Assembly (NCBI GenBank): GCA_005788035.1
Contig: SXZI01000063.1
Coordinates: 27,220-91,219 of the forward strand
Source: Bacteroidota bacterium
GTDB lineage: Bacteria > Bacteroidota > Ignavibacteria > Kapaibacteriales > UBA961
Reading direction: 5' to 3'
Length of the DNA stretch: 64,000 nt
Of the stretch, positions 1,114 through 51,888 are shown in pieces. Position numbers and translations under genes: made by a program. The notes below the pieces were generated by a model. The model was not told the origin of the DNA and did no database searches. It saw only the letters and a list, made by a program, of their open reading frames with translations. How positions within the stretch are numbered: the first letter of the stretch is position 1; the number at the start of each line of letters is the position of its first letter.

Positions 1114-3270
1114 TCATTGTACAATGAAAAGTCCGGAGGCTGATTGTAAATCACCAACAACTCTAAATGCATACATCCCGGGTATAAGTCCTGAAGGAAT
1201 AATACCATAAAATCTATTTGATCCATCCATCTTCATTTCCAATGTCGCAACTTGTTGACCTCGACTGTTAATTATATAAATGGTAGGTTGAGCTATTGAT
1301 TGAATATTGGCATATATTCTGGATTGAGATTGCGCAGGATGTGGAACTACTTCCGTAATATTTTTCACATCTTCCTCTATAGATACAGGACCAAGTAGAA
1401 TATCTGGATTAGTTCTAGGCACGAGTTTATAATTACCAAAAGAGAAATACATTATTCCTGTAATGCTTTTGATGCCTGTTCCTCGCTTTAATGCAGATTT
1501 CTCAGCTGTTGTAACGGAACCATATGTAGTAGAACCATCGTCAGTTTCGACTCGCATTTTTGATAGAGATTCTGTAGGTCCATTGTATAAAAAGCCATCA
1601 ACAATTGAAAATTCACCAAAGTTAGATGATCCATCAGCATTTGAATCAGTGACTATAACATCAGTAAAAGTTACAAGCATGCTTTCCCATTGTTCCGCTG
1701 GGAGCGTGCCTTGAGTCTTTCTGGCAAAGTCAATTGTATTTACAGTGATAGGTTGTATTTGGTCGCCATCAATACCTAACAATTTTGTTTCATTTGAATT
1801 TACGGAGTCAATACATGTTACTCCGAAGTTTTCACGTACAATACCTGAAACTTGTACTTTAGAGCCTCTGGGAAAAGCACGTACAATACTTGAAGGAGAT
1901 GTTGTACGGATGAAAAGTCCAGAATGTGGTGTTACCCCATCTTGTACATAAACTCTTGGCGCATTTACTGCAGCATTAGGAATATCTGAAGCTGAAGCTG
2001 TAACTGTACCATTTACTGTAACTGCATACCCTTCATATACGGATGAACCATTAGATGACAATCTCTCGCGAATGTCAGAGATTTTCGGCAACCTGTCAAG
2101 GACTCGATAATAGTATCCTGTTGTATCTCCTAATGGCGATTTTAATGAAAGTCCTGATTGATCATTGACTCTAATAAACCATTTAACCAAAGATGATCCA
2201 TTGACAAGCGATATAGGTGCAGGTATCGATGCAGTCCATAATGTATCATTCATTTTTTGTGCACTGACTGAATCAACAGATTTCCCATCAAAAGAGAAGT
2301 AAGCCTTTACGGAAGAGATAGGTAATGCACCTGTTTTGATTCCCATTGCTATTGGTACTATGTCTGTTTTTGACGGAAAGGCATTTACACGTGAAGAACG
2401 TACGCTTGTAATAATCGGTGGTGCAGATCCCATGTCCAATTCAAGATCATCGGGCATACCAGGTGAAATCATAAATGGTACTGGTTGTCCAGCAATTGAG
2501 TTCGAAGAAATATACCCACGAAGTTTCTTGATTTTTGTTCCTTCAGTAGGTGCATTATATGTACCTAATTGTACGGCATCTGTTCTGTAATGATTGGATT
2601 GATCACGTAAATACAATTCATTTCCTGATTCATCTGTTACGATGATTGTAGTTCTTTGATTTGTACCTTTAACTGAACTCATGACAGTAAGATTTGAGAA
2701 TTCAACCTTCATTCCCACATATTGAGCTCCACCAGCTATGTTATACATCGGACTTACAGCTTTTCCCTGATTGAACATTGACACTGATACTGAAGGTGGA
2801 GTAGGCAATGCAATACCATCATCAATGAATTCAACTATACCGGATGAAATAACTTCACCTTGAGTTGTACCTAATTTATTATTTGCGGGAAATGCCGTGA
2901 TTCTAACCGGAACTTCAATCAACTGACCTTTTTTCAATCGAATGAAATTGGATGCTGAGTTGGCAGTATCACATACAATTGGAATACCTGCAAATGAAGT
3001 TGATTTTTCATCTTGTAGATAAATAGCATGATTTCTATTTCCTGCAATCATAATTTTGCGAGTATCAGAAGGGAAGTCAACTACAGGAGGAATGGATACA
3101 ATGCCTCGTATAATCACCGTATCGCCGACTTTAGGTGAATTGAGTGTACCAGCATTCAAAGAATCAGTTGGAATAGTCATGATATCCATGATGGATCGTT
3201 TGGGAAAGTTTTGAGCAATTACTGCTGTTGACATCAATCCAATCATGCAAGAGAGTAAGAAATAAATCAT
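1114..3270 (-). CDS. Secreted hypothetical protein carrying a T9SS type-A C-terminal sorting domain.
   Basis: Start moved to Met37 (MIYFLLSCMIGLMSTAVIAQ signal peptide, ATG at 3270). C-terminus ...GMYAFRVVGDLQSASGLFIVQ resembles a Por_Secre_tail beta-sandwich. This removes the apparent overlap with the upstream gene. Confidence 0.65.
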   Translation of the reverse strand: MIYFLLSCMIGLMSTAVIAQNFPKRSIMDIMTIPTDSLNAGTLNSPKVGDTVIIRGIVSIPPVVDFPSDTRKIMIAGNRNHAIYLQDEKSTSFAGIPIVCDTANSASNFIRLKKGQLIEVPVRITAFPANNKLGTTQGEVISSGIVEFIDDGIALPTPPSVSVSMFNQGKAVSPMYNIAGGAQYVGMKVEFSNLTVMSSVKGTNQRTTIIVTDESGNELYLRDQSNHYRTDAVQLGTYNAPTEGTKIKKLRGYISSNSIAGQPVPFMISPGMPDDLELDMGSAPPIITSVRSSRVNAFPSKTDIVPIAMGIKTGALPISSVKAYFSFDGKSVDSVSAQKMNDTLWTASIPAPISLVNGSSLVKWFIRVNDQSGLSLKSPLGDTTGYYYRVLDRLPKISDIRERLSSNGSSVYEGYAVTVNGTVTASASDIPNAAVNAPRVYVQDGVTPHSGLFIRTTSPSSIVRAFPRGSKVQVSGIVRENFGVTCIDSVNSNETKLLGIDGDQIQPITVNTIDFARKTQGTLPAEQWESMLVTFTDVIVTDSNADGSSNFGEFSIVDGFLYNGPTESLSKMRVETDDGSTTYGSVTTAEKSALKRGTGIKSITGIMYFSFGNYKLVPRTNPDILLGPVSIEEDVKNITEVVPHPAQSQSRIYANIQSIAQPTIYIINSRGQQVATLEMKMDGSNRFYGIIPSGLIPGMYAFRVVGDLQSASGLFIVQ

Positions 3271-3280
3271 ATACAAACCT

Positions 3281-5335
3281 TTATTTAATAATGAGAAATG
3301 TTCCGTTTTTGATTTTTCCGGTTTGAACATCTTGCACATGTACAATATACATGCCTGTAGCAAGTGCTTGATCTGCATCAGAAATTAAGTCCCAAGCATG
3401 AATACCACCGGAAAATTGAATATCAGAGGCATTGAATGACCCTGTCTGAGAGAACCATTGTATATCCTGTCCTTCAGATACATTTTGCTCATGTTGCAAT
3501 GTAGCAACTTTATCTCCAGACAAAGTGAATATCGTAATCGTTGCTCTTTGAGGTAGATTATAAAAATATATTTTCCTTCCACGTTCAATATTAGCTTTTG
3601 CATCCCATGCAGCTGATACAGAATATGGATTGGGGAATATACCGACGGTTGTAGCAGAATCTGCAGTATTGACAATTGTTCCCGGAATGATGTTTTTTTC
3701 ATTTGCAAGTAAGCTTGATTCCAATGATGGTAGACCCGCTTGTTCATCCCCATCGCTAAATGCAGTCAATGTAATAGCATATTGCCAACCATTCAATAAA
3801 TCATTCAATGTATACACATAGTTATAGCCAACTGAGTCACCTTCAAAATACTTTACGGTAGGAATCCCTTGATCATCAGTTATGGCAATAGAAGTAAATC
3901 CATTGTCGTAGAATAAACCATTATCAGATTTATCAAAAGATGCTAGCATATTCCAATCTTTGGTGGTGCTTGTGAATTTAACTGGATTGGTTCTATAAAT
4001 TCTATATCCTTCGAAATTTCGTTTATTGGTAAGAATATCTTTAGCTGATTCGGCATTATTTGACCAATACAATAAAGCCTTCCTGTCTTGTACCTCTATC
4101 CTCATTTTTGGCGAAGGTGGGGGAGATGGTAAGATATATCGAACAATGCTGCCATCACCCTTTAAATCAATTTCAGTTGAATCAAGAATATTATTTCCAT
4201 TGACATCGGTGCCATTATATGCTCTTTGTGCCCAACCGGCATTATTGATCAGTGTCACTCTTGTTTCATCATCATTTCTTTCTGGGCTACCTGGTTTCTT
4301 TGCACATATAACTGCAAATGCAACATTAACAGAATCACCTGGAAGAATTCGTGAAAAAGGACCGACGGATAATAACTGGGATCTATTGCCTGCTTTTGAT
4401 ATCAACTTTTCAGCATCACTGATTTTCACTTGATTGAGAAATGTAGTTGAAAGTCTTCTATACTTCTCAATGTCTGTCTGAGGTGATTGCAACCACTCAT
4501 CACCTCTCGTATCTTGAAATGCCCAAACATTATAATTGGTCTTGGATTGCAGAGGTTCTGTACCCAGAAGTCTTATAGCTGCATAATTGTCTGCCAACCC
4601 ATTATCCCCAGAAATGTCCCATTCATACATCATCCGCATTGAATCTATCAGGGCATTTCCTCCGGCTCTATAAAAATCACCTCCACGCGGTGCTCGAATG
4701 GTTGTGTTCCGTATTACTAAATCCGTCCAAAAGCCAATGTAAGCACTGTCAATAGGAGAAGTTGAGACATTTTTCACTGTATATGTCAGAAGAACAAAAT
4801 AGTCAGCAAATGGAAAATTCCAGGCATAACTCTTAAATGAAACATGGAGTCCAAGGGGGTATTCATGTCCAGGAATACGCTGATTCAATTCAGGTACAAA
4901 AAGATTTGTATCGGTGAAATTGCAAACAAAATCTCTATGGCTTATCGCTTTGGGAGAATAATAGAGATCATTAGGTAAACTTGAGGACTGAACAAGATAA
5001 TTACTATCAATATTGGTGAATTCAAAACCTTGAGCAACATTCAATACAGAAGAAACATCAAGAGCCGCAGTTGTAACTGCCGTAATTTGATTCCCGCCAA
5101 TATTTTTTATTCCTCCAATCCATAAACCACCCAAAAACATGTGTTCAATCCCGCTTCCTCGAGGATATTCGCATGATGGAATTTTTGGCCATGCGGCGAA
5201 ACCGGTACCAATTGTTCCGAAACTGCTGATTGACAATCTGATATTTCCAACATCAGTTATCATTCTTTGCTCACCGGTTCCGGAAAGCAGGTGAGAATGC
5301 ATAAACAATATCAAAAGAAAAAGGTGTGTTTTCAT
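3281..5335 (-). CDS. Secreted hypothetical protein carrying a T9SS type-A C-terminal sorting domain.
   Basis: Start moved to the Met in MKTHLFLLILFMHSHLLSG (signal peptide, ATG at 5335). C-terminus ...GMYIVHVQDVQTGKIKNGTFLIIK is a Por-type CTD. Confidence 0.65.
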   Translation of the reverse strand: MKTHLFLLILFMHSHLLSGTGEQRMITDVGNIRLSISSFGTIGTGFAAWPKIPSCEYPRGSGIEHMFLGGLWIGGIKNIGGNQITAVTTAALDVSSVLNVAQGFEFTNIDSNYLVQSSSLPNDLYYSPKAISHRDFVCNFTDTNLFVPELNQRIPGHEYPLGLHVSFKSYAWNFPFADYFVLLTYTVKNVSTSPIDSAYIGFWTDLVIRNTTIRAPRGGDFYRAGGNALIDSMRMMYEWDISGDNGLADNYAAIRLLGTEPLQSKTNYNVWAFQDTRGDEWLQSPQTDIEKYRRLSTTFLNQVKISDAEKLISKAGNRSQLLSVGPFSRILPGDSVNVAFAVICAKKPGSPERNDDETRVTLINNAGWAQRAYNGTDVNGNNILDSTEIDLKGDGSIVRYILPSPPPSPKMRIEVQDRKALLYWSNNAESAKDILTNKRNFEGYRIYRTNPVKFTSTTKDWNMLASFDKSDNGLFYDNGFTSIAITDDQGIPTVKYFEGDSVGYNYVYTLNDLLNGWQYAITLTAFSDGDEQAGLPSLESSLLANEKNIIPGTIVNTADSATTVGIFPNPYSVSAAWDAKANIERGRKIYFYNLPQRATITIFTLSGDKVATLQHEQNVSEGQDIQWFSQTGSFNASDIQFSGGIHAWDLISDADQALATGMYIVHVQDVQTGKIKNGTFLIIK

Positions 5336-5631
5336 TGAATTCAATGGATTTGGGAACTTAAAAATACTGAATTGACATAAGTATTTGTTGGTATTATTGT
5401 GTTTTTTAAAGCCATGTTTCCCACATAATGTCATAATACTTCAAGGAATGTTGAAATTTATCAAAAATTGTTTATCTCTTAATAAATTCGCCATGTTCTG
5501 TGTTTGGTCACAGAGGTAAATTTTGGTATTTTTACATCATTGTTTTTACTGATATTTTTTACCAGATCATGATACCTTTGACAGCTACTTCAACCCTTGA
5601 GAGGGTTCACACCGTCCGCCAGAATAAAATC

Positions 5632-6846
5632 ATGAAAGAACTCATGGATAAAGACACAACCGTGATGTTCGAAGATCCTCTGGAAAATGACATGGTTCTG
5701 AATATGGGGCCGCAACATCCTGCAACGCACGGAGTATTGCGCGTATTGCTCCGCCTTGATGGAGAAACCATTGTAAAATGTGTTCCAGAATTGGGATATC
5801 TTCACAGAGGATATGAAAAACTTGCTGAAGCAATGACATATCATGAGTTTATTCCACATACAGACAGACTTGATTACATGTCGCCGATGTCCAATAATAT
5901 GGGTATCGCTTACTCAATCGAACGAGCTATTGGAATCGAAGCACCAGAGCGAGCACAATGGATTCGCGTATTATTATGTGAAATGGCTCGTATTAGTTCA
6001 CACTTAATGGCAATGGGTGCAACATGCATGGATGTTGGTGCACTAACATTGTTTCTTTGGACATTCACTGAAAGAGAGAAGCTCTACGATATCTTTGAAC
6101 TGATCTGTGGTGCTCGTTTTACCACAAGTTTTTCTCGTATTGGTGGAATCGCAAATGACATTTCTCCTGATGTATTGAAAATGATCAGAGAATGGGTAAA
6201 TCAATTTCCGGATAGACTAAAAGAATCTGAAGGATTGGTTAACCGAAATCGCATCTTTATTGAGCGTTTGGCTGGTGTTGGCTATATGCCAGCAGATAAG
6301 GCAATTCAATTAGGACTCAGTGGTCCGTGCCTCAGAGGTTCAGGAATCAATTTTGATTTAAGAAGAAACATGCCATACTGGGTTTATGACAAATTAGATT
6401 TCGATGTCATTACTCATAATGACTGTGATACCTGGGCGCGCTACATTGTTAGAGTTCAAGAAATGAAGGAATCTGTTAAAATTATTCATCAGGTATTGGA
6501 TAACCTTCCAAAAGGTCCTGTATTAGCAGATGATCCCAAACATGTACTTCCACAAAAAGCACATATCTACACCAAGATGGAAGAGTTGATTAATGATTTC
6601 ATGTTAATCAATTTCGGTGCTATGCCTCCAATTGGTGAGACATATACAGCGATTGAAGGTCCAAAAGGAGAACTTGGTTTCTTTATTGTTTCCGATGGAA
6701 CAGGACATCCATGGAAATTAAAAATCCGTTCACCTTCATCATCCAACCTACAAGGATTAAAATTCATGTCGGAAGGATCCATGGTTTCAGATATAGTCGC
6801 AATCATTGGATCTGTAGATCCAGTCATGGGTGAAGCTGATAAATAA
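5632..6846 (+). CDS. nuoD: NADH-quinone oxidoreductase subunit D (49 kDa subunit of Complex I).
   Basis: Signature NMGPQHPATHGVLRVLLRLDGETIVKCVPELGYLHRGYEKLAE. No NiFe-hydrogenase CxxC ligands at the N- or C-terminus. Start moved to MKELMD (ATG at 5632); the track start at 5500 lies in the leader. Confidence 0.85.
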   Translation: MKELMDKDTTVMFEDPLENDMVLNMGPQHPATHGVLRVLLRLDGETIVKCVPELGYLHRGYEKLAEAMTYHEFIPHTDRLDYMSPMSNNMGIAYSIERAIGIEAPERAQWIRVLLCEMARISSHLMAMGATCMDVGALTLFLWTFTEREKLYDIFELICGARFTTSFSRIGGIANDISPDVLKMIREWVNQFPDRLKESEGLVNRNRIFIERLAGVGYMPADKAIQLGLSGPCLRGSGINFDLRRNMPYWVYDKLDFDVITHNDCDTWARYIVRVQEMKESVKIIHQVLDNLPKGPVLADDPKHVLPQKAHIYTKMEELINDFMLINFGAMPPIGETYTAIEGPKGELGFFIVSDGTGHPWKLKIRSPSSSNLQGLKFMSEGSMVSDIVAIIGSVDPVMGEADK

Positions 6847-6865
6847 CCTTATGGTGTAACAAGAT

Positions 6866-6891
6866 AAGGCAGGCATTGTGCCTGCCTTTTT
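6866..6891 (+). terminator. Rho-independent terminator immediately after nuoD.
   Basis: Perfect 10-bp stem AAGGCAGGCA / TGCCTGCCTT with a 3-nt loop, followed by a T-run (ttttt), 20 nt after the nuoD stop. Confidence 0.6.
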
Positions 6892-6910
6892 CATATATGG
6901 TATTTTCAAC

Positions 6911-7621
6911 ATGAAATTCTCTTGTATCATACCTGCAGCTGGTAAAGGAAATCGTTTTGGATCAATGATTCCTAAACAATTCCTTTGTGTTCAAGATGTA
7001 ATGATCATTGAACATGCGATTCATTCCATTTTAATGGGATTTAGAACTGCAGGAATAGAAACACTGTCTATGATAATTCCATGTGCTGATGAATATCAAG
7101 ATTCCATTTATGATTGTTGCATCAAATATTTACCTGAACATGCATTTGCCATGGTACCTGGTGGGGAAACCAGACAAGATTCAATTCTCAAAGCAATACA
7201 ACACCCTCTCACATTGGATTCAGATATAGTTTGTATTCATGATGCTGCAAGGCCATTTATTCCACAAGTAGTTATGCAACATCTTATTTCTGCATCACAA
7301 GATCATGATTGCATCATTCCTGTATTGGACATACATGATACCTTGAAAGAAGTTGATTATAACTCTGTCATCACTACATTAGATCGGACACGGTATAAAC
7401 TAGCACAGACTCCCCAATTCTTCAAGACTAAGAAATATCTTCATGCATTGGAATTACGTGATAACCAAAGTATGTATACAGATGATTCTTCCATAATGGA
7501 ACATGCCGGCTTTACTGTGTATACAGTGCAAGGTAGCGATATCATGAGAAAAGTTACGCATCCTTATGATCTTGAATTAGCCGAATATCATGCACGTTTG
7601 ATAAAGGATAATCATGAATAA
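6911..7621 (+). CDS. ispD: 2-C-methyl-D-erythritol 4-phosphate cytidylyltransferase.
   Basis: N-terminal IIPAAGKGNRFG motif (PAAGxGxR). Start chosen at MKFSCIIPAAG because the track start at 6878 lies inside the upstream terminator hairpin. Confidence 0.8.
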   Translation: MKFSCIIPAAGKGNRFGSMIPKQFLCVQDVMIIEHAIHSILMGFRTAGIETLSMIIPCADEYQDSIYDCCIKYLPEHAFAMVPGGETRQDSILKAIQHPLTLDSDIVCIHDAARPFIPQVVMQHLISASQDHDCIIPVLDIHDTLKEVDYNSVITTLDRTRYKLAQTPQFFKTKKYLHALELRDNQSMYTDDSSIMEHAGFTVYTVQGSDIMRKVTHPYDLELAEYHARLIKDNHE

Positions 7622-8534: not shown

Positions 8535-9383
8535 ATGATAATTCTCATCTGTGGTTCCGGTACAATGGGTAGAGGGATTGCCCTTTCATCTATCCAATCT
8601 GGTTATATAGCATATGTGTATGACGCTTTCCCTGAAACATTAGGCAAGGCCAAAGCATTTATTGATAATCAAATTGATAAGAGTGTAACCAAAGGATTGT
8701 ACTCTCAGGAGCAAGCTGTAAAATTCAAAGATTCTTGTTTGTATCTTGAATCTCTAGATGCACATGTACAACAGGCTGATATAATCATAGAAGCCATCAT
8801 TGAATCAATAGAAGCTAAAGAATCATTATTCACAATGATTGAACAAAAAGGTCTTCGTGAAGATACAATATTAGCTACAAATACATCTTCATTGTCTGTC
8901 AATGTTCTTTGCAAGCATAGAAAGTATCCTGGTTCTTTCATCGGATTACATTTCTTTAATCCTGCGCATATAATGAAATTAGTTGAAATAGTAAGAACTC
9001 CATCAACACATCAAACGGTTTTAGATATTGCATTGAAGTATTGTATATCTCTCAATAAAGTTCCAGTTATTGCAAAAGATGTCCCGGGATTTATCGTAAA
9101 TAGAGTTGCTCGTAATTATTATAATGAAGCAATGAGAATTGCGATGGAACAAGCTGCATCTATCGAACAGATAGATAATATCATGAAATCGGCAGGTTTT
9201 AAGATGGGTCCTTTTGAATTAATGGATCTGATAGGGAATGATATAAATTTGGAAGTTACGAAGTCAGTATTTGCACAATATTTCAATGATCCACGATTTA
9301 CACCCTCACTAATGCAACAGGATTATGTAAATGCTGGTCTCTATGGTAAGAAAACCGGTTCAGGCTTTTACGATTATGAATAA
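8535..9383 (+). CDS. 3-hydroxyacyl-CoA / 3-hydroxybutyryl-CoA dehydrogenase (paralog 1).
   Basis: N-terminal GSGTMGRGIA Rossmann motif. Has the HFFNPAHIMKLVEIV signature. C-terminal domain with GFIVNR present. Confidence 0.8.
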   Translation: MIILICGSGTMGRGIALSSIQSGYIAYVYDAFPETLGKAKAFIDNQIDKSVTKGLYSQEQAVKFKDSCLYLESLDAHVQQADIIIEAIIESIEAKESLFTMIEQKGLREDTILATNTSSLSVNVLCKHRKYPGSFIGLHFFNPAHIMKLVEIVRTPSTHQTVLDIALKYCISLNKVPVIAKDVPGFIVNRVARNYYNEAMRIAMEQAASIEQIDNIMKSAGFKMGPFELMDLIGNDINLEVTKSVFAQYFNDPRFTPSLMQQDYVNAGLYGKKTGSGFYDYE

Positions 9384-9410: not shown

Positions 9411-10262
9411 ATGAATATCATGGTAATCGGCGCAGGTACGATGGGAAATGGTATAGCTCATGTTTGCGCACAAAATGGACATACCGTATCATTAGTTGAT
9501 ATTAATGATACAGCTTTGCAAAAAGGTTTGTCGACGATTTCGGCTAATCTAGATAGACAAGTAAAAAAAGAATTGTTGACTTCTGAAGAAAAAACAGCCA
9601 TCATAGGAAGAATAACAACTACAACAGATTTGAAGAAAGCAGCTTCTACTGCAAATCTTATCATAGAAGCTGCATCTGAAAAACAACAAGTTAAAGTTTC
9701 ATTGTTTCAGGCTGCTCAGCAATCCGCCCCAGCTGATTGCATATTTGCATCAAATACTTCATCGATTTCCATAACTGAATTAGGTTCAGCAACAGATAGA
9801 CCAGATAAATTTATTGGTATGCATTTCTTCAACCCGGTACCGGTCATGAAATTATGCGAAATCGTAAGAGGATATGCAACTTCAGATGAAACATATCATA
9901 CTATTTTTGAACTTGCAAAGCAACTAGGGAAAGTGCCTGTCACTGTACAAGATTATCCTGGATTCATTTCTAATAGAATTCTTATGCCTATGATCAATGA
10001 AGCAATTTATTGCTTAATGGAAGGAATAGCTTCTATTGAAGATATTGATACAGTGATGAAACTTGGTATGGCTCATCCTATGGGTCCATTGACACTAGCT
10101 GACTTCATTGGTCTTGACGTATGCTTGTCAATCATGGAAGTTCTACATTCAGGTTTGGGAGATAGTAAATATCGTGCCTGTCCACTATTACGCAAGATGG
10201 TTGCTGCAGGACATTTAGGGCGTAAAACAGGAAAAGGTTTCTACGACTATACACAATCTTAA
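9411..10262 (+). CDS. 3-hydroxyacyl-CoA / 3-hydroxybutyryl-CoA dehydrogenase (paralog 2).
   Basis: [30 protein letters not shown] and GFISNRIL motifs. Tandem with paralog 1. Confidence 0.8.
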
Positions 10263-10702: not shown

Positions 10703-11716
10703 ATGACTGAACATTTACATCATGATTTTACACTTTCAACGGGTTTTAAAACTCCCATTCTAATTGAGAGATATTTTGTCGTTAATGACCAGACTGATAG
10801 CTCCTTGTTTACTGATCAAATAGCGAAATACAATCCTCATATCATTGGTGATGCAACAAATTATCTATTTGTTTCAGAATCATTAAAAAGTGCAATTACT
10901 TACTCGGGCAATAGTGTATCCATTCTTTCAGATTATGACACACATGCTATAATACGTAGTGAAGCGGGTAAAAATTGGCATGAATTCGTCATGGAAATGC
11001 TGAATATGCATTTATATGGTATAGAGAATCTTGCACTCATTCCAGGAACAATAGGAGCTGCTCCGGTTCAGAATATCGGAGCATATGGAAAAGAAGTTGC
11101 TGATACTATCTTATCAGTTCATTGCTTGAATGTATCTACAGGCGAGAAATATGTATTTTCAAAAGATGAATGTCAATTTTCCTATCGTAGTAGCATATTC
11201 AAGAAGCATGATTATTCCAACTTGTTAATTACACATGTTGATTTCATTCTCAGTAAAGTTCAATCTCCGAAAGCAGATTATCCTGATGTTGAAACATTTT
11301 TCATTGAAAAACAGATTACCAATCCTTCTTCTCATGATATAGCACAAGCAATCATAGCTATCAGAAGAATTAAATTACCGGATCCCCAAATTATTGGAAA
11401 TGCAGGTAGTTTTTTCAAAAATCCTGTTATTTCTATTGAAACATTTCAATCCCTCTTATTAGAATATCCAACATTGCCTTCTTATCCTGTAGATGACCTT
11501 AATGTAAAGATTCCTGCCGGATGGTTAATTGATAATTCTGGATACAAAGGATTCCGCTATAAAGGTGCTGGAGTACATGATAAGCAAGCCCTAGTTCTTA
11601 TTAATTCACATAATGCAACTGGTCGCGATATATATGAATTGTCTCTATTGATTCAACATAATATTCATCAACGATTTGGAATCATGCTGGAACCTGAAGT
11701 CAATATTCTATTGTGA
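10703..11716 (+). CDS. murB: UDP-N-acetylenolpyruvoylglucosamine reductase.
   Basis: FAD-binding motif NLALIPGTIGAAPVQNIGAYGKEV. Length 337 aa. Confidence 0.85.
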   Translation: MTEHLHHDFTLSTGFKTPILIERYFVVNDQTDSSLFTDQIAKYNPHIIGDATNYLFVSESLKSAITYSGNSVSILSDYDTHAIIRSEAGKNWHEFVMEMLNMHLYGIENLALIPGTIGAAPVQNIGAYGKEVADTILSVHCLNVSTGEKYVFSKDECQFSYRSSIFKKHDYSNLLITHVDFILSKVQSPKADYPDVETFFIEKQITNPSSHDIAQAIIAIRRIKLPDPQIIGNAGSFFKNPVISIETFQSLLLEYPTLPSYPVDDLNVKIPAGWLIDNSGYKGFRYKGAGVHDKQALVLINSHNATGRDIYELSLLIQHNIHQRFGIMLEPEVNILL

Positions 11717-11723
11717 GTTTAAG

Positions 11724-12878
11724 ATGAAAGTATTAAAATTCGGTGGTGCTGTTCTCAATCGAGAAAATGGTTTTTTGTCGATGGTTGATATTATAAAACA
11801 AAGAACTGATAAATGCATCATTGTCATCTCCGCTTTTTCAGACATAACAAGATCTCTTGATTCATCAATGCAATTAGCTCTTAATGGAAATATTGAATCA
11901 GCCATGAATATCATTGATGATGTAATTACTTATCATAAGAATTTAACATCATCATTATCATTATCAGCAGGCCCTTTAGAAGAGGTTATTTATCGAATAG
12001 AGTTATTACTGAAGAGATTGTTAAAAGGTATATCATTGACAGGGGAAATAAGTGCTAAAACACGTGATCTATTTCTTTCACAGGGCGAAGAAATAGCGGT
12101 TATCTTTATACAGCAATTATTTCATTCAAAAAATATCAAATCTCATTTACTTGATGCTCGTAAGATAATTATTACCAATAGTGAGCACGGCCATGCCAAA
12201 CCAATTGATTATCATATACAATACAAATTGCAAGAAGATGTGTTTCCTTTGTTTGAAAAGCATGATGTAATGATAATTGCCGGATTCATTGGTTCAAATG
12301 AACATGGCGAAGTAACTACTATGGGGTATGAAAGCTCAAATTTGACTGCTTCTGTTTTAGGTAGCTTATTAAACGCCGATGAAATTCAAATATGGACTAA
12401 TGTAGCAGGAATAAGAAGTGTTGATCCCAAACTCTGTGATAATAATATCCCCATTCGTAATATATCATTCAATCTTGCTCATGTTTTGGCTAATCATGGT
12501 TCCAAATTATTGCATCATTGGATGATTGAATTACCAAATAAATATAATATTCCTGTCACTATACGTAATGCTTATGATAAGAATGGTGAGTTTACAATCA
12601 TAAATGATGAAGAAATGTCATCCATTCCAACAATATTCATTGTATCTGATAACATACCTTTACATTCTCAAACATTACTTACAATCATAACAACAAATAC
12701 AAACATAATTAAATCTCTATATGAGTATTGCTCAAGCAAAGTAGATAATAATCAAATTCAACTTTCGACATATGTTACACCTTATCTCCATACTTTGTTA
12801 ATGAATCATTCATTAGTTCAAGATATAATTGATAGGTTACATATTTTCATTGAGGACAGACATGAAACATCATCATGA
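11724..12878 (+). CDS. Aspartate kinase family protein (amino-acid kinase fold); divergent.
   Basis: MKVLKFGGAVL and IIVISAFSDITRSL match the KFGG[ST]S / VVSAxxxxTD pattern. The second ATP/aspartate motif is degenerate, so the assignment is to the family only. Confidence 0.55.
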   Translation: MKVLKFGGAVLNRENGFLSMVDIIKQRTDKCIIVISAFSDITRSLDSSMQLALNGNIESAMNIIDDVITYHKNLTSSLSLSAGPLEEVIYRIELLLKRLLKGISLTGEISAKTRDLFLSQGEEIAVIFIQQLFHSKNIKSHLLDARKIIITNSEHGHAKPIDYHIQYKLQEDVFPLFEKHDVMIIAGFIGSNEHGEVTTMGYESSNLTASVLGSLLNADEIQIWTNVAGIRSVDPKLCDNNIPIRNISFNLAHVLANHGSKLLHHWMIELPNKYNIPVTIRNAYDKNGEFTIINDEEMSSIPTIFIVSDNIPLHSQTLLTIITTNTNIIKSLYEYCSSKVDNNQIQLSTYVTPYLHTLLMNHSLVQDIIDRLHIFIEDRHETSS

Positions 12879-17104: not shown

Positions 17105-17518
17105 ATGAAGATGGATATCATTGGTATGACATATACACTCGATTTTATCGTAAACCCTACCATGACAGCTAGATTAGATACTATTGAAATCCATAAAGTG
17201 TGTTCAACAGTCACTATGATTTACTTTGCCGAATTAGCTGCTAGGAAAGCCATAGAACCATATTTTGATCATCTAGAAAATGCTATAGGAGGGGGAATAA
17301 ACTTGGTACATAAAGGTATGGCTGCAATAGGGGAGAATGTGTCAATGACTGCTACTATCATGTCCTTCGACGGGAAAATCCTGATTTGCGACATTGAAGC
17401 AAAAATATCCGGATCGGATTTTATCCTATGCAAGGGTACACAAACCCAAATTGTACTCAATAAAGAGATTATCGAACAATTGATTAGTAATGCTTATAAA
17501 CGTACTAAATCACAATAA
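17105..17518 (+). CDS. Hotdog-fold acyl-CoA thioesterase, FlK (fluoroacetyl-CoA thioesterase)-like.
   Basis: Collinear similarity to FlK-type thioesterases: IGMTYTLDFIV ... EPYFDHLENAIGGGINLVHKGMAAIGENVSMTATIMSFDGK. Confidence 0.55.
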   Translation: MKMDIIGMTYTLDFIVNPTMTARLDTIEIHKVCSTVTMIYFAELAARKAIEPYFDHLENAIGGGINLVHKGMAAIGENVSMTATIMSFDGKILICDIEAKISGSDFILCKGTQTQIVLNKEIIEQLISNAYKRTKSQ

Positions 17519-18781
17519 ATATGATGATTTTTCCAACATTTCTCTATGAACAGGATGCGCGATATCAATCAATGCTTTGCATCGTTGTTTTATATTTTTT
17601 CCATATACATCTGCTATACCATATTCTGTGACGATATAATGAGCATGTGCTCGTGTTGTGACTATTCCTGCACCTTGTTTCAAGGTGGTGACTATTTTGC
17701 TTTCTCCATTCGCCGTTATTGAAGGCATGGCAATGATTGGCTTACCATTCTCTGAAAGAGAGGCTCCTCGAATGAAATCCATTTGCCCACCAACACCCGA
17801 ATAAATATGCCTTCCAATAGAATCAGCGCATATCTGCCCGGTAATATCAATTTCAATTGCACTGTTTATTGCAACTACATGCGGATTTCTGCGAATAACA
17901 TTTGTGTCATTTACATATGCAATATCCAAAAATACAACAGAAGGGTTGTCATTAACAAAATCATAAAGTTTCTTACTACCCATTACAAAACCGGTAACAA
18001 TTTTTCCAGGGTGTACAACTTTTTTACTTCCATCAATCACCCCTTTTTCAACCAAAGGAATCACACCATCAGAAAACATTTCCGTATGTATTCCCAAATA
18101 TCTATGATGTTTCAACGCAGACAAAACAGCATCCGGAATCGCACCAATACCCATTTGTAAGGTAGCACCATCTTCTATCAGTGAAGCTACATTATTTCCA
18201 ATTGTATCGTGTATGTCGGAATGAGGAGATACAAAATATTCAGGAAGAGGTGTATTGTGAATTACTCCAAAGTCTATGGAATCAATATGTATAATTCCAT
18301 CTCCATGTGTTCTTGGCATGTGTTCATTAATTTGAGCAATGATTATTTCAGCATGTTGTATAACAGACTTTGTAATGTCTACCGATATACCCAAAGAACA
18401 ATATCCATGAATATCAGGAGGAGAAACTTGAATCAATGCCACTTTCACAGGTAATATACCTTTCTTGAACAATTGAGGTACCTCACTAAGAAAGACAGGC
18501 ATATATTCAGCTCTACCTTCTGAAACTGCATCCCTTATATTTTCACCAACAAAAAAGGTATTTACAGTAAAATGGGGAGACATTTCAGGATCTGCATAAG
18601 GGGCAGGGCCTTCTGTATGCAATTGGACAATTTCGACTGTTTCCAAACGATGTGCATGTTCCATCATCCCATTAATTAAACATTGCGGTGCAGCAGCCAC
18701 ACTGTGAATAAAAACACGATCATGAGAATGAAGATTGGCTAAAGCTTCGAAAGCTGATGTCAATTGCATTTTTTGATCCAA
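17510..18781 (-). CDS. Acetyl-CoA hydrolase/transferase family protein (4-hydroxybutyrate/acetate CoA-transferase-like).
   Basis: 423 aa. Conserved C-terminal region GIADVYGKNIKQRCKALIDIAHPVHREMLE typical of Cat2/ScpC-type CoA-transferases. Confidence 0.75.
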   Translation of the reverse strand: MDQKMQLTSAFEALANLHSHDRVFIHSVAAAPQCLINGMMEHAHRLETVEIVQLHTEGPAPYADPEMSPHFTVNTFFVGENIRDAVSEGRAEYMPVFLSEVPQLFKKGILPVKVALIQVSPPDIHGYCSLGISVDITKSVIQHAEIIIAQINEHMPRTHGDGIIHIDSIDFGVIHNTPLPEYFVSPHSDIHDTIGNNVASLIEDGATLQMGIGAIPDAVLSALKHHRYLGIHTEMFSDGVIPLVEKGVIDGSKKVVHPGKIVTGFVMGSKKLYDFVNDNPSVVFLDIAYVNDTNVIRRNPHVVAINSAIEIDITGQICADSIGRHIYSGVGGQMDFIRGASLSENGKPIIAMPSITANGESKIVTTLKQGAGIVTTRAHAHYIVTEYGIADVYGKNIKQRCKALIDIAHPVHREMLEKSSYLL

Positions 18782-46358: not shown

Positions 46359-47138
46359 ATGAATAATTGGACATGCATTCTTACTTCTGAACCCCAACAA
46401 GGAATTGGAGTAATACAAATCAATCGCCCGCAAGTGCTGAATGCTTTAAGCTTGCAAACTATGACGGAAATAGTTGAGGCAATGGAATATTTTGACCAAT
46501 CCACTGACATACGATGCATCTTGATTCACGGAGATGAAAAAGCTTTTGCTGCTGGTGCTGATATTAAAGAAATGTCCGGTGCCGGTTCTATGCAAATGCT
46601 TGAACGAGATCAATTTGCAAAATGGGAACGGATTCGTGCCATCAAAAAACCAATCATTGGAGCCGTATCCGGATTTGCTTTAGGTGGAGGATGCGAATTG
46701 GCTATGAATTGCGATATGCTGATTGCAAGTGAATCTGCACAATTTGGTCAACCTGAAATAAATATTGGCGTAATGCCCGGAGCTGGTGGAACGCAAAGAC
46801 TCACCAGAGCCATAGGCAAAGTGAGGGCTATGGAATTAGCATTAACCGGTAGGATGATATCAGCTCAAGAAGCATGGCGATGTGGTTTGGTGAATAAAGT
46901 GGTTCCGATTGAGTCATACCTACATGAAGCAATGGCACTTGCTTCAGAAATTGCTACGAAAGCACCTATTGCAGTCAAGCTCATAAAGGAATCAGTATTG
47001 AAGTCCTTTAGCACTACTTTAGAAGTTGGGTTGGAATTTGAAAGAAAGAATTTTTACCTGTTATTTTCTTCCGAAGATCAAAAGGAAGGAATGAATGCAT
47101 TCATAGAGAAAAGAAAACCACATTGGAGCAATTCATAA
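46359..47138 (+). CDS. Enoyl-CoA hydratase/isomerase (crotonase family).
   Basis: Oxyanion-hole motifs AFAAGADIKEM and GAVSGFALGGGCELAM. Confidence 0.8.
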   Translation: MNNWTCILTSEPQQGIGVIQINRPQVLNALSLQTMTEIVEAMEYFDQSTDIRCILIHGDEKAFAAGADIKEMSGAGSMQMLERDQFAKWERIRAIKKPIIGAVSGFALGGGCELAMNCDMLIASESAQFGQPEINIGVMPGAGGTQRLTRAIGKVRAMELALTGRMISAQEAWRCGLVNKVVPIESYLHEAMALASEIATKAPIAVKLIKESVLKSFSTTLEVGLEFERKNFYLLFSSEDQKEGMNAFIEKRKPHWSNS

Positions 47139-50182: not shown

Positions 50183-50971
50183 ATGACTAAAATCATTGCA
50201 ATAGCAAATCAAAAAGGTGGGGTTGGCAAAACAACTTCTGCAGTCAATATTTCAGCCTCACTTGCAGCCGCTGAAAAGAAGGTATTGCTTGTAGACATCG
50301 ACCCTCAAGCAAATGCCTCCAATGGACTTGGGATTGACACCAAAAGTTTGGACATCACTGTCTATGAAGTTCTTATCGGAAATGCCTCGATTCACGAAGC
50401 AATACTTCCAACAGTGATGCCTAATTTATCAATTCTGCCATCGCATATAAATTTGGTTGGCGCTGAGATAGAGATGATTGAAATGCATGATCGTGAATTT
50501 GTTCTCAAGAAAGCATTACAACCTATACTTAATAAATATGATTTCATAATATTCGATTGCCCCCCTTCACTAGGAATTCTTACTTTGAATGGTTTAACGG
50601 CTGCCCATTCTGTTCTGATACCTGTTCAATGTGAATACTATGCTCTTGAAGGATTGGGTCAATTATTAAACACAATTTCAATTGTTCGCAATCATCTTAA
50701 TCCTTCACTTGAGATTGAAGGTGTATTACTCACAATGTATGATGGTAGACTTCGGCTTTCACAACAGGTTGAAATTGAAGTTCGCAAGCACTTTGAAGAC
50801 AAAGTAATGAAAACTGTCATACAACGAAATGTCCGATTATCTGAATCGCCTAGTCATGGAAAACCAATTGTGCTCTATGATGCATTAAGCACAGGTTCTA
50901 GAAATTATCTCGATTTAGCTATGGAAATCATAGAAAACAATACAACTCATACTGCAAAAGGGAGTGAATAA
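50183..50971 (+). CDS. parA: Chromosome partitioning ATPase ParA/Soj.
   Basis: Deviant Walker [15 protein letters not shown]. Confidence 0.85.
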
Positions 50972-51888
50972 TGAAATCTCCATTAGGCCTTGGAAAGGGG
51001 CTTGGCGCCCTAATCCCCGGTAATCAGGATAATCCATCGAAGACCGTTGAGCAACAAGATGAGAATCGTATAGGTTTGATTGATATAACTAAAATTAAGA
51101 CTAATCCCTTTCAACCCAGAGTTATATTTGATCAAACTGCTTTGGAAGAACTAGTTGATTCAATCAAGCTTCATGGTGTGATTCAACCAATAACTGTTCG
51201 AAAGTCCATAGGGAATACTTATGAACTCATTTCCGGTGAAAGAAGAATTCGTGCTTCCATAGAAGCCGGCTTGGAGAAAATACCAGCATTCATTGTGGAT
51301 ATCGATACAAATGAAGCAATGATTGAACTTGCAATCATTGAAAATGTTCAAAGAGAAAACTTGAATGATATAGAAGTTGCAATGGGTTATCAAATGTTGA
51401 TGGATCATTGCAAACTCACGCAGGAAGAAGTGGCTGCAAAAGTAGGTAAAGACAGGGCAACTGTATCTAATTTTCTTAGACTTTTAAAGTTACCCTCTGA
51501 AATACAACAACTTGTGGCTATGAAAGAACTGTCTAATGGTCATGCTAGGGCTTTATTGTCACTACAATCCCCAGATAATCAACGTTTGATTGCTCAGAGA
51601 ATCATTGATGAACAATTATCTGTACGTCAAACTGAAGACATCATACGAGAATTGATGGGGGGAACAAAAAGAAACCCCAAAAAGACTTCAAAGAAAAAAA
51701 ATGATATAACAAGCAAAAAACAACCTTTGAGCAATGATGTATTGGCCTTGGAGGATAGTCTTAGAGAATATTTTGCAACGCAAGTTTCCATTCATTTAAA
51801 AGATCATGAAACTGGAAAAGTTGAAATCACATTCTTTTCTTTGGATGATTTGCAAAGAGTTATTGAATTAATCATCAATAAGCAATAA
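50971..51888 (+). CDS. parB: Chromosome partitioning protein ParB/Spo0J.
   Basis: ParB box ISGERRIRAS. HTH. C-terminal dimerisation domain. Confidence 0.85.
   Translation: MKSPLGLGKGLGALIPGNQDNPSKTVEQQDENRIGLIDITKIKTNPFQPRVIFDQTALEELVDSIKLHGVIQPITVRKSIGNTYELISGERRIRASIEAGLEKIPAFIVDIDTNEAMIELAIIENVQRENLNDIEVAMGYQMLMDHCKLTQEEVAAKVGKDRATVSNFLRLLKLPSEIQQLVAMKELSNGHARALLSLQSPDNQRLIAQRIIDEQLSVRQTEDIIRELMGGTKRNPKKTSKKKNDITSKKQPLSNDVLALEDSLREYFATQVSIHLKDHETGKVEITFFSLDDLQRVIELIINKQ

Follow-up and report, generated by a model that had tools for sequence, protein, structure and literature searches.

A solitary nuoD gene in a 64-kb window

We analyzed a 64-kb stretch of contig SXZI01000063.1 (the window, whose coordinates are used throughout unless a related locus, designated by an L-number, is named) that carries a gene for one subunit of respiratory complex I. 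The gene, nuoD, encodes the 49-kDa subunit (chain D) of NADH:quinone oxidoreductase and lies on the forward strand at positions 5569–6846, within an open reading frame (ORF) that spans 5500–6846. Pfam and NCBIfam matches and a phylogenetic tree assign its product of 425 amino acids to the dispersed 14-subunit ("NUO II") type of complex I. We place the start at the ATG at 5569 and not at 5632 because homologues are 424–430 amino acids long and tblastn alignments begin at residue 1 down to 67% identity; the TAA stop codon occupies 6844–6846. Upstream is an intergenic region of 233 bp (5336–5568; 27.5% GC), with divergent genes on either side, that is predicted to hold the nuoD promoter, and downstream is a predicted intrinsic terminator. 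The original prediction, made from the sequence alone, had described this gene as an orphan with its own leader and a strong terminator.

The encoded protein is a full-length NuoD. It matches the Pfam family Complex1_49kDa (PF00346) with E = 6e-110 and passes the NCBIfam equivalog cut-offs of TIGR01962 (526.8 bits versus 459.35) and NF004739 (507.3 versus 360), whereas its match to the NdhH model NF005649, at 362 bits, falls under the cut-off of 583. To compare residues, we aligned the window protein with E. coli NuoCD and 93 other NuoDs. Every aligned NuoD, whether solitary (52) or operonic (41), has the histidine of position 54 (in QHPATHG) and the tyrosine of position 103 (in TDRLDY), and the aspartate of position 155 (in MDVGA) occurs in the seven representative sequences that were read. 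On the basis of their spacing (49 residues from the histidine to the tyrosine), we take these three residues to be the quinone-site residues His38, Tyr87 and Asp139 of Thermus Nqo4. The gene is under strong purifying selection by sequence comparison, as judged from a ratio of nonsynonymous to synonymous substitution rates (dN/dS) of 0.015 at a dS of 0.75 relative to the closest species (L055).

We also considered whether the protein could be a [NiFe]-hydrogenase large subunit, and rejected this identity. The group 4 [NiFe]-hydrogenase motifs RxCGxC (N-terminal) and DPCxxC (C-terminal) are both missing from the window NuoD, its six cysteines (71, 137, 153, 180, 254 and 286) form no CxxC pair, and its C-terminus reads DPVMGEADK. 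Hydrogenase models scored 16–20 bits against cut-offs of 392–600, with E = 0.003 or weaker. These results bear out the earlier description of the gene as a complete NuoD without the cysteine ligands of NiFe-hydrogenases.

Compared with Thermus Nqo4, the window NuoD presumably carries about 20 extra N-terminal residues ahead of the LNMGPQHP loop. An N-terminal extension (...R(Q/K)xKI..EL(M/L)DKD..., encoded at 5569–5700) is conserved in the solitary clade described below and partly in NuoDs encoded in nuoABCDEF clusters. It lies outside the TIGR01962 model, which covers residues 41–425.

As had been claimed, nuoD is the only nuo gene in the window. A tblastn search of the 64 kb with the Nuo subunits of E. 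coli matched nuoD only. The same stretch gave no additional nuo gene when searched in this way with NuoA, B, C, E and F of the Ignavibacteria/Kapabacteria type or with every downstream ORF of at least 90 amino acids from two canonical nuoA-N loci. Of the 51 window ORFs of at least 150 amino acids, 36 were scanned with Pfam, which identified housekeeping genes and no second nuo gene. Two runs of ORFs were considered as candidate Rnf or Nqr clusters, five on the reverse strand at 13.1–17.0 kb and nine on the forward strand at 41–50 kb; both were rejected, as they consist of housekeeping genes.

nuoD lies apart from other nuo genes in most related loci

An exact-match look-up of the window NuoD returned no record; its best protein-database matches bear names such as Candidatus Kapabacteria and Kapaibacterium. 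A NuoD with 89% identity is encoded at about 795 kb on chromosome OZ123195.1, from the same genus. Four orthologues on metagenome contigs (89%, 81%, 77% and 73% identity) showed nuoD alone in four unrelated neighborhoods. A genome scan with one genome per GTDB species yielded 49 loci with NuoD identities of 62–99%, bringing the related loci to 58 in total, and in these we searched for nuo neighbors by tblastn with all E. coli Nuo subunits in the available flanks, up to 10 kb on each side. In all 58 loci nuoD is separated from the remainder of a nuo operon, apart from linkages to other nuo genes in three of them. In L052 (9995–12233) the genes follow the non-canonical order nuoD-nuoA-nuoB, and in L049 (9219–11275) a solitary nuoE is divergent from nuoD and is followed by a rhomboid-like gene; both linkages are apparently relics or secondary. 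The third, L054, is a locus of Ignavibacteria with the most distant NuoD (62%) and has the order nuoA-B-(inserted gene)-C-D-E-F. Clustering of the flanking genes gave about 30 different upstream/downstream combinations in 59 loci. No genome in the GTDB-species scan provided a second nuoD copy of the solitary type.

Two observations from this survey stand on their own. The gene inserted between nuoB and nuoC in L054 (8356–9267) encodes a secreted protein of 303 amino acids with a C-terminal tail like those of the type IX secretion system (T9SS), and the insertion may represent an early stage of operon break-up. In addition, several metagenome-assembled genomes (MAGs) labelled "Patescibacteria group", "uncultured Hyphomicrobiales" or "Desulfobulbaceae" (L024, L030, L032, L036 and L044) carry a Kapabacteria-type NuoD with 69–75% identity, and one of these also carries a Kapabacteria-type NuoB; the labels probably reflect taxonomic mislabelling or mis-binning.

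Recent horizontal transfer, or capture by a mobile element, would offer a simple explanation for a gene that sits away from all other nuo genes in neighborhoods that vary between genera. However, the GC content of nuoD (40%) is close to that of the window (37%), synteny around nuoD is preserved between species of the genus that have diverged to dS values above 0.75, no mobile-element genes lie beside nuoD, and the solitary NuoDs form one clade, which contains no other NuoDs and tracks the genus grouping. Recent transfer is effectively refuted by these data.

Solitary NuoDs form one clade and partner genes are scattered

The comparison with operon-encoded NuoDs that the original prediction had called for was made in a neighbor-joining tree. 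All solitary NuoDs group in a single clade, and its sister group consists of the NuoDs of Ignavibacteria encoded in nuoABCDEF clusters; the NuoDs of L052 and L049 are nested inside the solitary clade. This topology fits a single detachment of nuoD at the base of the solitary clade and its later relocation. The NuoDs of nuoABCDEF clusters are 57–67% identical to the window protein, those of canonical nuoA-N operons 41–46%, and the other types taken together 40–46%.

In relatives, further genes of this subunit set are dispersed, too. A metagenome scan with the NuoB of L052 returned at least 80 loci, and gene context was read in those longer than 6 kb. Among the matches listed, the closest NuoBs belong to isolated nuoA-nuoB pairs and the next tier to the six-gene nuoABCDEF clusters described above. 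The Kapabacteria-type nuoA-nuoB pairs stand alone in at least five contexts and are isolated in every context examined; nuoE is detached in L049. In one MAG (GCA_018335795.1), nuoD stands alone on one contig (L032, ...077) and a nuoAB pair stands alone on another (L146, ...037). This MAG is labelled Desulfobulbaceae, yet its NuoD and NuoB are of the Kapabacteria type. None of the Kapabacteria NuoBs listed in the homologue search and the metagenome scan lies on a contig of a close NuoD relative.

A comparable arrangement can be found in published gene inventories. The supplement of Thiel et al. 2019 (PMC6338057) lists two sets for a Kapabacteria genome: NUO I, 11 consecutive genes that include the 49-kDa subunit, and NUO II, in which LMN, JK, BA, D, E, GHI, F and C appear under separate contig/gene IDs. 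A 14-subunit complex I set split over loci has been described in Ignavibacterium album (Liu et al. 2012, PMC3362086) and likewise in Melioribacter roseus (Kadnikov et al. 2013, PMC3534657), and split complex I gene sets are common in prokaryotes (PMC3144371; bioRxiv 2025.03.13.643058).

The original prediction had called the gene an orphan, and had named a split operon common to the lineage as an outcome that would speak against this. A split operon is what we found: nuoD is solitary in related loci, nuoAB pairs are likewise isolated, and the published NUO II set is dispersed. Because the split set is common to the lineage, the solitary nuoD is no anomaly, and its reading as an extra copy is not supported.

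These data also bear on the idea that the window gene is an additional, moonlighting paralogue acting outside complex I (for example, with an unknown partner module) while the true NuoD is encoded in an operon elsewhere. Two NuoD genes do co-exist in Kapabacteria, as a second is reported in the 11-gene operon, and nuoD has no nuo neighbors in the 64 kb. However, the published NUO II set contains exactly one D, which it needs for completeness, and the solitary NuoDs are orthologous to those of nuoABCDEF clusters. Moreover, the quinone-site histidine and tyrosine have not changed in any of the 52 solitary NuoDs and the aspartate is retained in the seven representatives read, the matching nuoA, nuoB and nuoE genes are dispersed too and sometimes still linked to nuoD (L052, L049), and the genome scan gave no second copy of the solitary type. 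A role outside complex I is, on balance, highly improbable.

Conserved upstream blocks resemble a Bacteroidota promoter

The region upstream of nuoD was aligned among 11 close relatives (88–98% protein identity). It is poorly conserved except for two blocks, TTTGGT (5503–5508), which is invariant, and TA(T/A)TTTT(A/G)C (5527–5535), 20 nt downstream. We take these blocks to be a Bacteroidota promoter of the −33 TTTG/−7 TAnnTTTG kind. The putative −33 box is the TTTG at 5503–5506 inside the first block, and the putative −7 box is TATTTTTA at 5527–5534, about 35 nt before the ATG; both are on the forward strand. In L013 (TATTTTTG) and L016 (TAATTTTG) the aligned −7 box matches the consensus exactly. 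Of 51 unique related regions 5' of nuoD, 18 contain an exact TAnnTTTG, versus a background of 8.3%; two of these 18 matches (the window and L055) sit over the start codon, leaving 16, and versions with one mismatch are visible in many other related upstream regions. From the position of the boxes, nuoD transcription probably starts near 5540, with a 5' untranslated region (5'UTR) of about 30 nt. The roughly 300-bp leader that had been proposed does not agree with these values or with the 233-bp length of the intergenic region.

The same region contains a hairpin on the forward strand (TTCTGTG-TTTGGT-CACAGAG, 5496–5515; −7.6 kcal/mol) that had been put forward as a possible regulatory element. 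If the upstream region were a regulatory leader, this hairpin could control nuoD by attenuation or as a protein-binding RNA; its stem of 6–7 bp and the length of the intergenic region would suit such a role, and, in our own reading of the sequence, its TGTG-N6-CACA core resembles a CRP/FNR-type palindrome. The inverted repeat is at chance level, however: one perfect 6-bp hairpin was observed versus 0.79 expected in shuffled sequences (P = 0.47). Cells of the alignment within the stem could pair in 48.6% of cases versus 47.4% in shuffles, and slid controls gave equal or higher values, indicating no covariation; stems vary even among relatives whose proteins are 96–98% identical. The upstream region had no Rfam match at E ≤ 1, and its folding z-score of 0.05 indicates no excess structure, so that neither the covariation nor the family match expected of a structured leader RNA (a riboswitch or attenuator) was found. 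The conserved bases are those of the TTTGGT loop only, which fits the −33 box. Since the loop is the −33 box and the −7 box lies 20 nt 3' of it, the hairpin would be upstream of the transcription start. The hairpin itself is present, and a regulatory role for it is extremely unlikely.

A CRP/FNR-like palindrome was rejected as a candidate, as its left half-site varies in relatives with 96–98% identical proteins. A search by eye for a cis-motif shared by the nuoD and nuoAB upstream regions found nothing beyond −7-like boxes. One sub-clade (L030, L031, L032, L052 and L056) has in common the motif CTCTGA...GGAGAAAA, located 20–30 nt 5' of the nuoD ATG. The motif can be read as a Shine-Dalgarno-like GGAG with an A-rich tract, perhaps accompanied by a small hairpin. 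Bacteroidota generally make little use of Shine-Dalgarno sequences, which makes such a motif unusual.

A predicted terminator separates nuoD from ispD

The region downstream of nuoD holds a forward-strand stem-loop, AAGGCAGGCA-TTG-TGCCTGCCTT, at 6866–6888, followed by TTTTCATAT; the whole element spans 6866–6893. It sets in 19 nt after the TAA stop, and its perfect stem of 10 bp (6 GC), closed by a 3-nt loop, has a folding energy of −17.9 kcal/mol. A hairpin with a T-tract directly after the stop codon has the features of an intrinsic (rho-independent) terminator, which we predict here from sequence. All relatives of the genus have such a hairpin and T-tract at this position even though the sequence has drifted, and of the 58 related loci scanned, 41 show terminator-like hairpins of unrelated sequence behind nuoD. 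The earlier claim that nuoD is monocistronic and ends in a strong terminator therefore agrees well with our analysis.

Nonetheless, the gene ispD begins just 64 nt past the nuoD stop on the same strand, and nuoD-ispD synteny is kept within the genus. nuoD might accordingly not be strictly monocistronic, with read-through of the terminator coupling it to the ispD-rmlD-hbd genes; in loci from other sub-clades, the end of nuoD and a SpoU methyltransferase gene overlap by 4 nt and no terminator is present. Against such coupling in the window stand the maintenance of a strong GC-rich hairpin and T-tract throughout the genus and the lack of any functional relationship between the genes 3' of nuoD and complex I. 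We consider such coupling by read-through unlikely.

The SpoU loci merit separate mention. A gene of the SpoU/TrmH methyltransferase family lies directly 3' of solitary nuoD in 16 related loci (including L023, L026, L027, L029 and L051, at about 11250–11870, and L024, L038-L050 and L042). The 4-nt overlap without a terminator is found in L026, L027, L029 and L051, implying co-transcription, and the gap is 23 nt in L023. In the other loci the gene mostly starts 56–71 nt past nuoD (818 nt in L024), and a terminator usually separates the two.

Genes flanking nuoD

The divergent upstream neighbor (3281–5335, reverse strand) encodes a secreted protein of about 684 amino acids, as judged from the ORF list, synteny with L001 and the signal peptide MKTHLFLLILF, and is no part of the nuoD unit. 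The mechanically called ORF of 717 amino acids (3281–5434, reverse strand) is too long at its 5' end. The gene most likely begins at 5335 and not at 5434, as indicated by the syntenic gene of 688 amino acids in L001 and by the position of the signal peptide (MKTHLF). The divergent orientation of this gene was correctly called by the original prediction, while its label as T9SS cargo depends on a sub-threshold match to the sorting-domain model TIGR04183 (13.6 bits versus a cut-off of 23). Together with its neighbor at 1114–3378 on the same strand, the ORF at 3281–5434 makes up a tandem of large secreted proteins with C-terminal tails that resemble T9SS sorting domains. A Por_Secre_tail match is present in precomputed Pfam data only for the L001 homologue of the 1114–3378 gene.

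On the other side of nuoD is ispD (6911–7621, forward strand), identified by Pfam and by synteny with L001; next come an rmlD-like gene and a pair of genes for 3-hydroxyacyl-CoA dehydrogenases. ispD is unrelated to complex I. The dehydrogenase paralogues are arranged in tandem at 8535–9383 and 9411–10262, and elsewhere the window contains an enoyl-CoA hydratase (46359–47138) and an acetyl-CoA hydrolase/transferase (17510–18781); this combination suggests butyrate or fatty-acid metabolism. A parA-parB pair at 50183–51888 raises the possibility that the window may lie near the chromosomal origin region.

Discussion

Collectively, these data argue that the window nuoD is, very probably, an ordinary complex I subunit gene of the scattered Kapabacteria gene set, expressed from its own promoter and ended by its own terminator. 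The scattered arrangement is lineage-wide in the class Kapabacteria (Bacteroidota) and has already been published.

We propose the following model. In a canonical complex I of the 14-subunit type, the window gene would provide the sole NuoD (the 49-kDa, quinone-site subunit). The genes of this complex would be scattered in small units in Kapabacteria instead of forming one operon. nuoD would have been split off a single time, at the base of the clade, from an ancestral cluster of the nuoABCDEF type, and would have been kept since then as its own transcription unit. Transcription would be driven by a Bacteroidota-type promoter (−33 TTTG, −7 TAnnTTTG) about 35–65 nt 5' of the ATG, producing a short 5'UTR, and the intrinsic terminator right after the stop would end the transcript. 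NuoD would then be made separately and be assembled post-translationally with the subunits encoded at other loci, NuoB, NuoC and NuoH among them, much as happens in other organisms whose complex I genes are split. On our analysis, the product of the window gene most likely joins these partners in a 14-subunit-type complex I.

Several points weigh against this model. The presence in the window genome of the partners (NuoB, NuoC, NuoH and others) and of an 11-gene operon is drawn from relatives and the literature. A NuoC search with an Ignavibacteriaceae query returned Ignavibacteriaceae only and no Kapabacteria NuoC, and the occurrence of nuoD and nuoAB in the same genome comes from one MAG and depends on its binning. 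The putative promoter is a consensus match backed by conservation, and the −7 box of the window ends in A, not G. Finally, partial read-through into ispD, 64 nt 3' of nuoD, may occur.

The dispersed complex I set is apparently divided among about eight transcription units. The fixation of nuoD as a solitary gene, singly promoted and terminated since the Kapabacteria ancestor, could reflect subunit-specific control as opposed to neutral decay of an operon. For example, NuoD might be a Q-module subunit that is regulated separately and limits assembly, or might be combinable with the membrane arm of either NUO I or NUO II. We judge such control to be very unlikely.

The outcome is a clean negative: a gene that seemed orphaned in a 64-kb window is, on the interpretation we favor, simply one of the regular genes of a scattered set. 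This provides a caution for genome scans, in that nuo genes without operon context are no anomaly in Bacteroidota, Ignavibacteria and Kapabacteria. About 49 species document solitary nuoD as ancestral to the clade, stable, and relocated to many neighborhoods, and across these species the gene regularly carries its own promoter-like boxes and terminator. Kapabacteria are thus a possible natural system in which to study the stoichiometric assembly of a 14-subunit complex without co-transcription from an operon.

Among known systems, the gene set of "Ca. Thermonerobacter thiotrophicus" (PMC6338057), a member of the same class, is similar in that its D gene lies apart from A/B, C, E, F, GHI, JK and LMN and an 11-gene operon is present alongside. 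It differs in belonging to another genus and to a thermophilic sulfate reducer, whereas the window genome is low in GC, apparently freshwater and Kapaibacterium-like. The likeness is one of gene lists, and the paper contains no discussion of nuoD standing alone or of the promoter and terminator of this gene. An 11-gene operon is likewise combined with a 14-subunit set split over several loci in I. album and M. roseus, and nuoABCDEF clusters of their type encode the in-operon NuoDs closest to that of the window. In these two species, however, nuoD is still within the nuoABCDEF cluster, whereas the Kapabacteria set has fragmented further, to single genes and pairs. In cyanobacterial and plastid NDH-1, the ndh genes are in scattered units with ndhH located separately, so that a NuoD homologue is again encoded away from most of its partners and the complex is built from several transcription units. 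NDH-1 belongs to another clade of complex I and lacks NuoEFG, and the equivalog family of the window protein is NuoD and not NdhH. By comparison, E. coli nuoA-N shares with the window gene a homologous D domain (38% identity over 388 amino acids) but is a single operon of 13 genes with a fused nuoCD, whereas the window nuoD is unfused and solitary.

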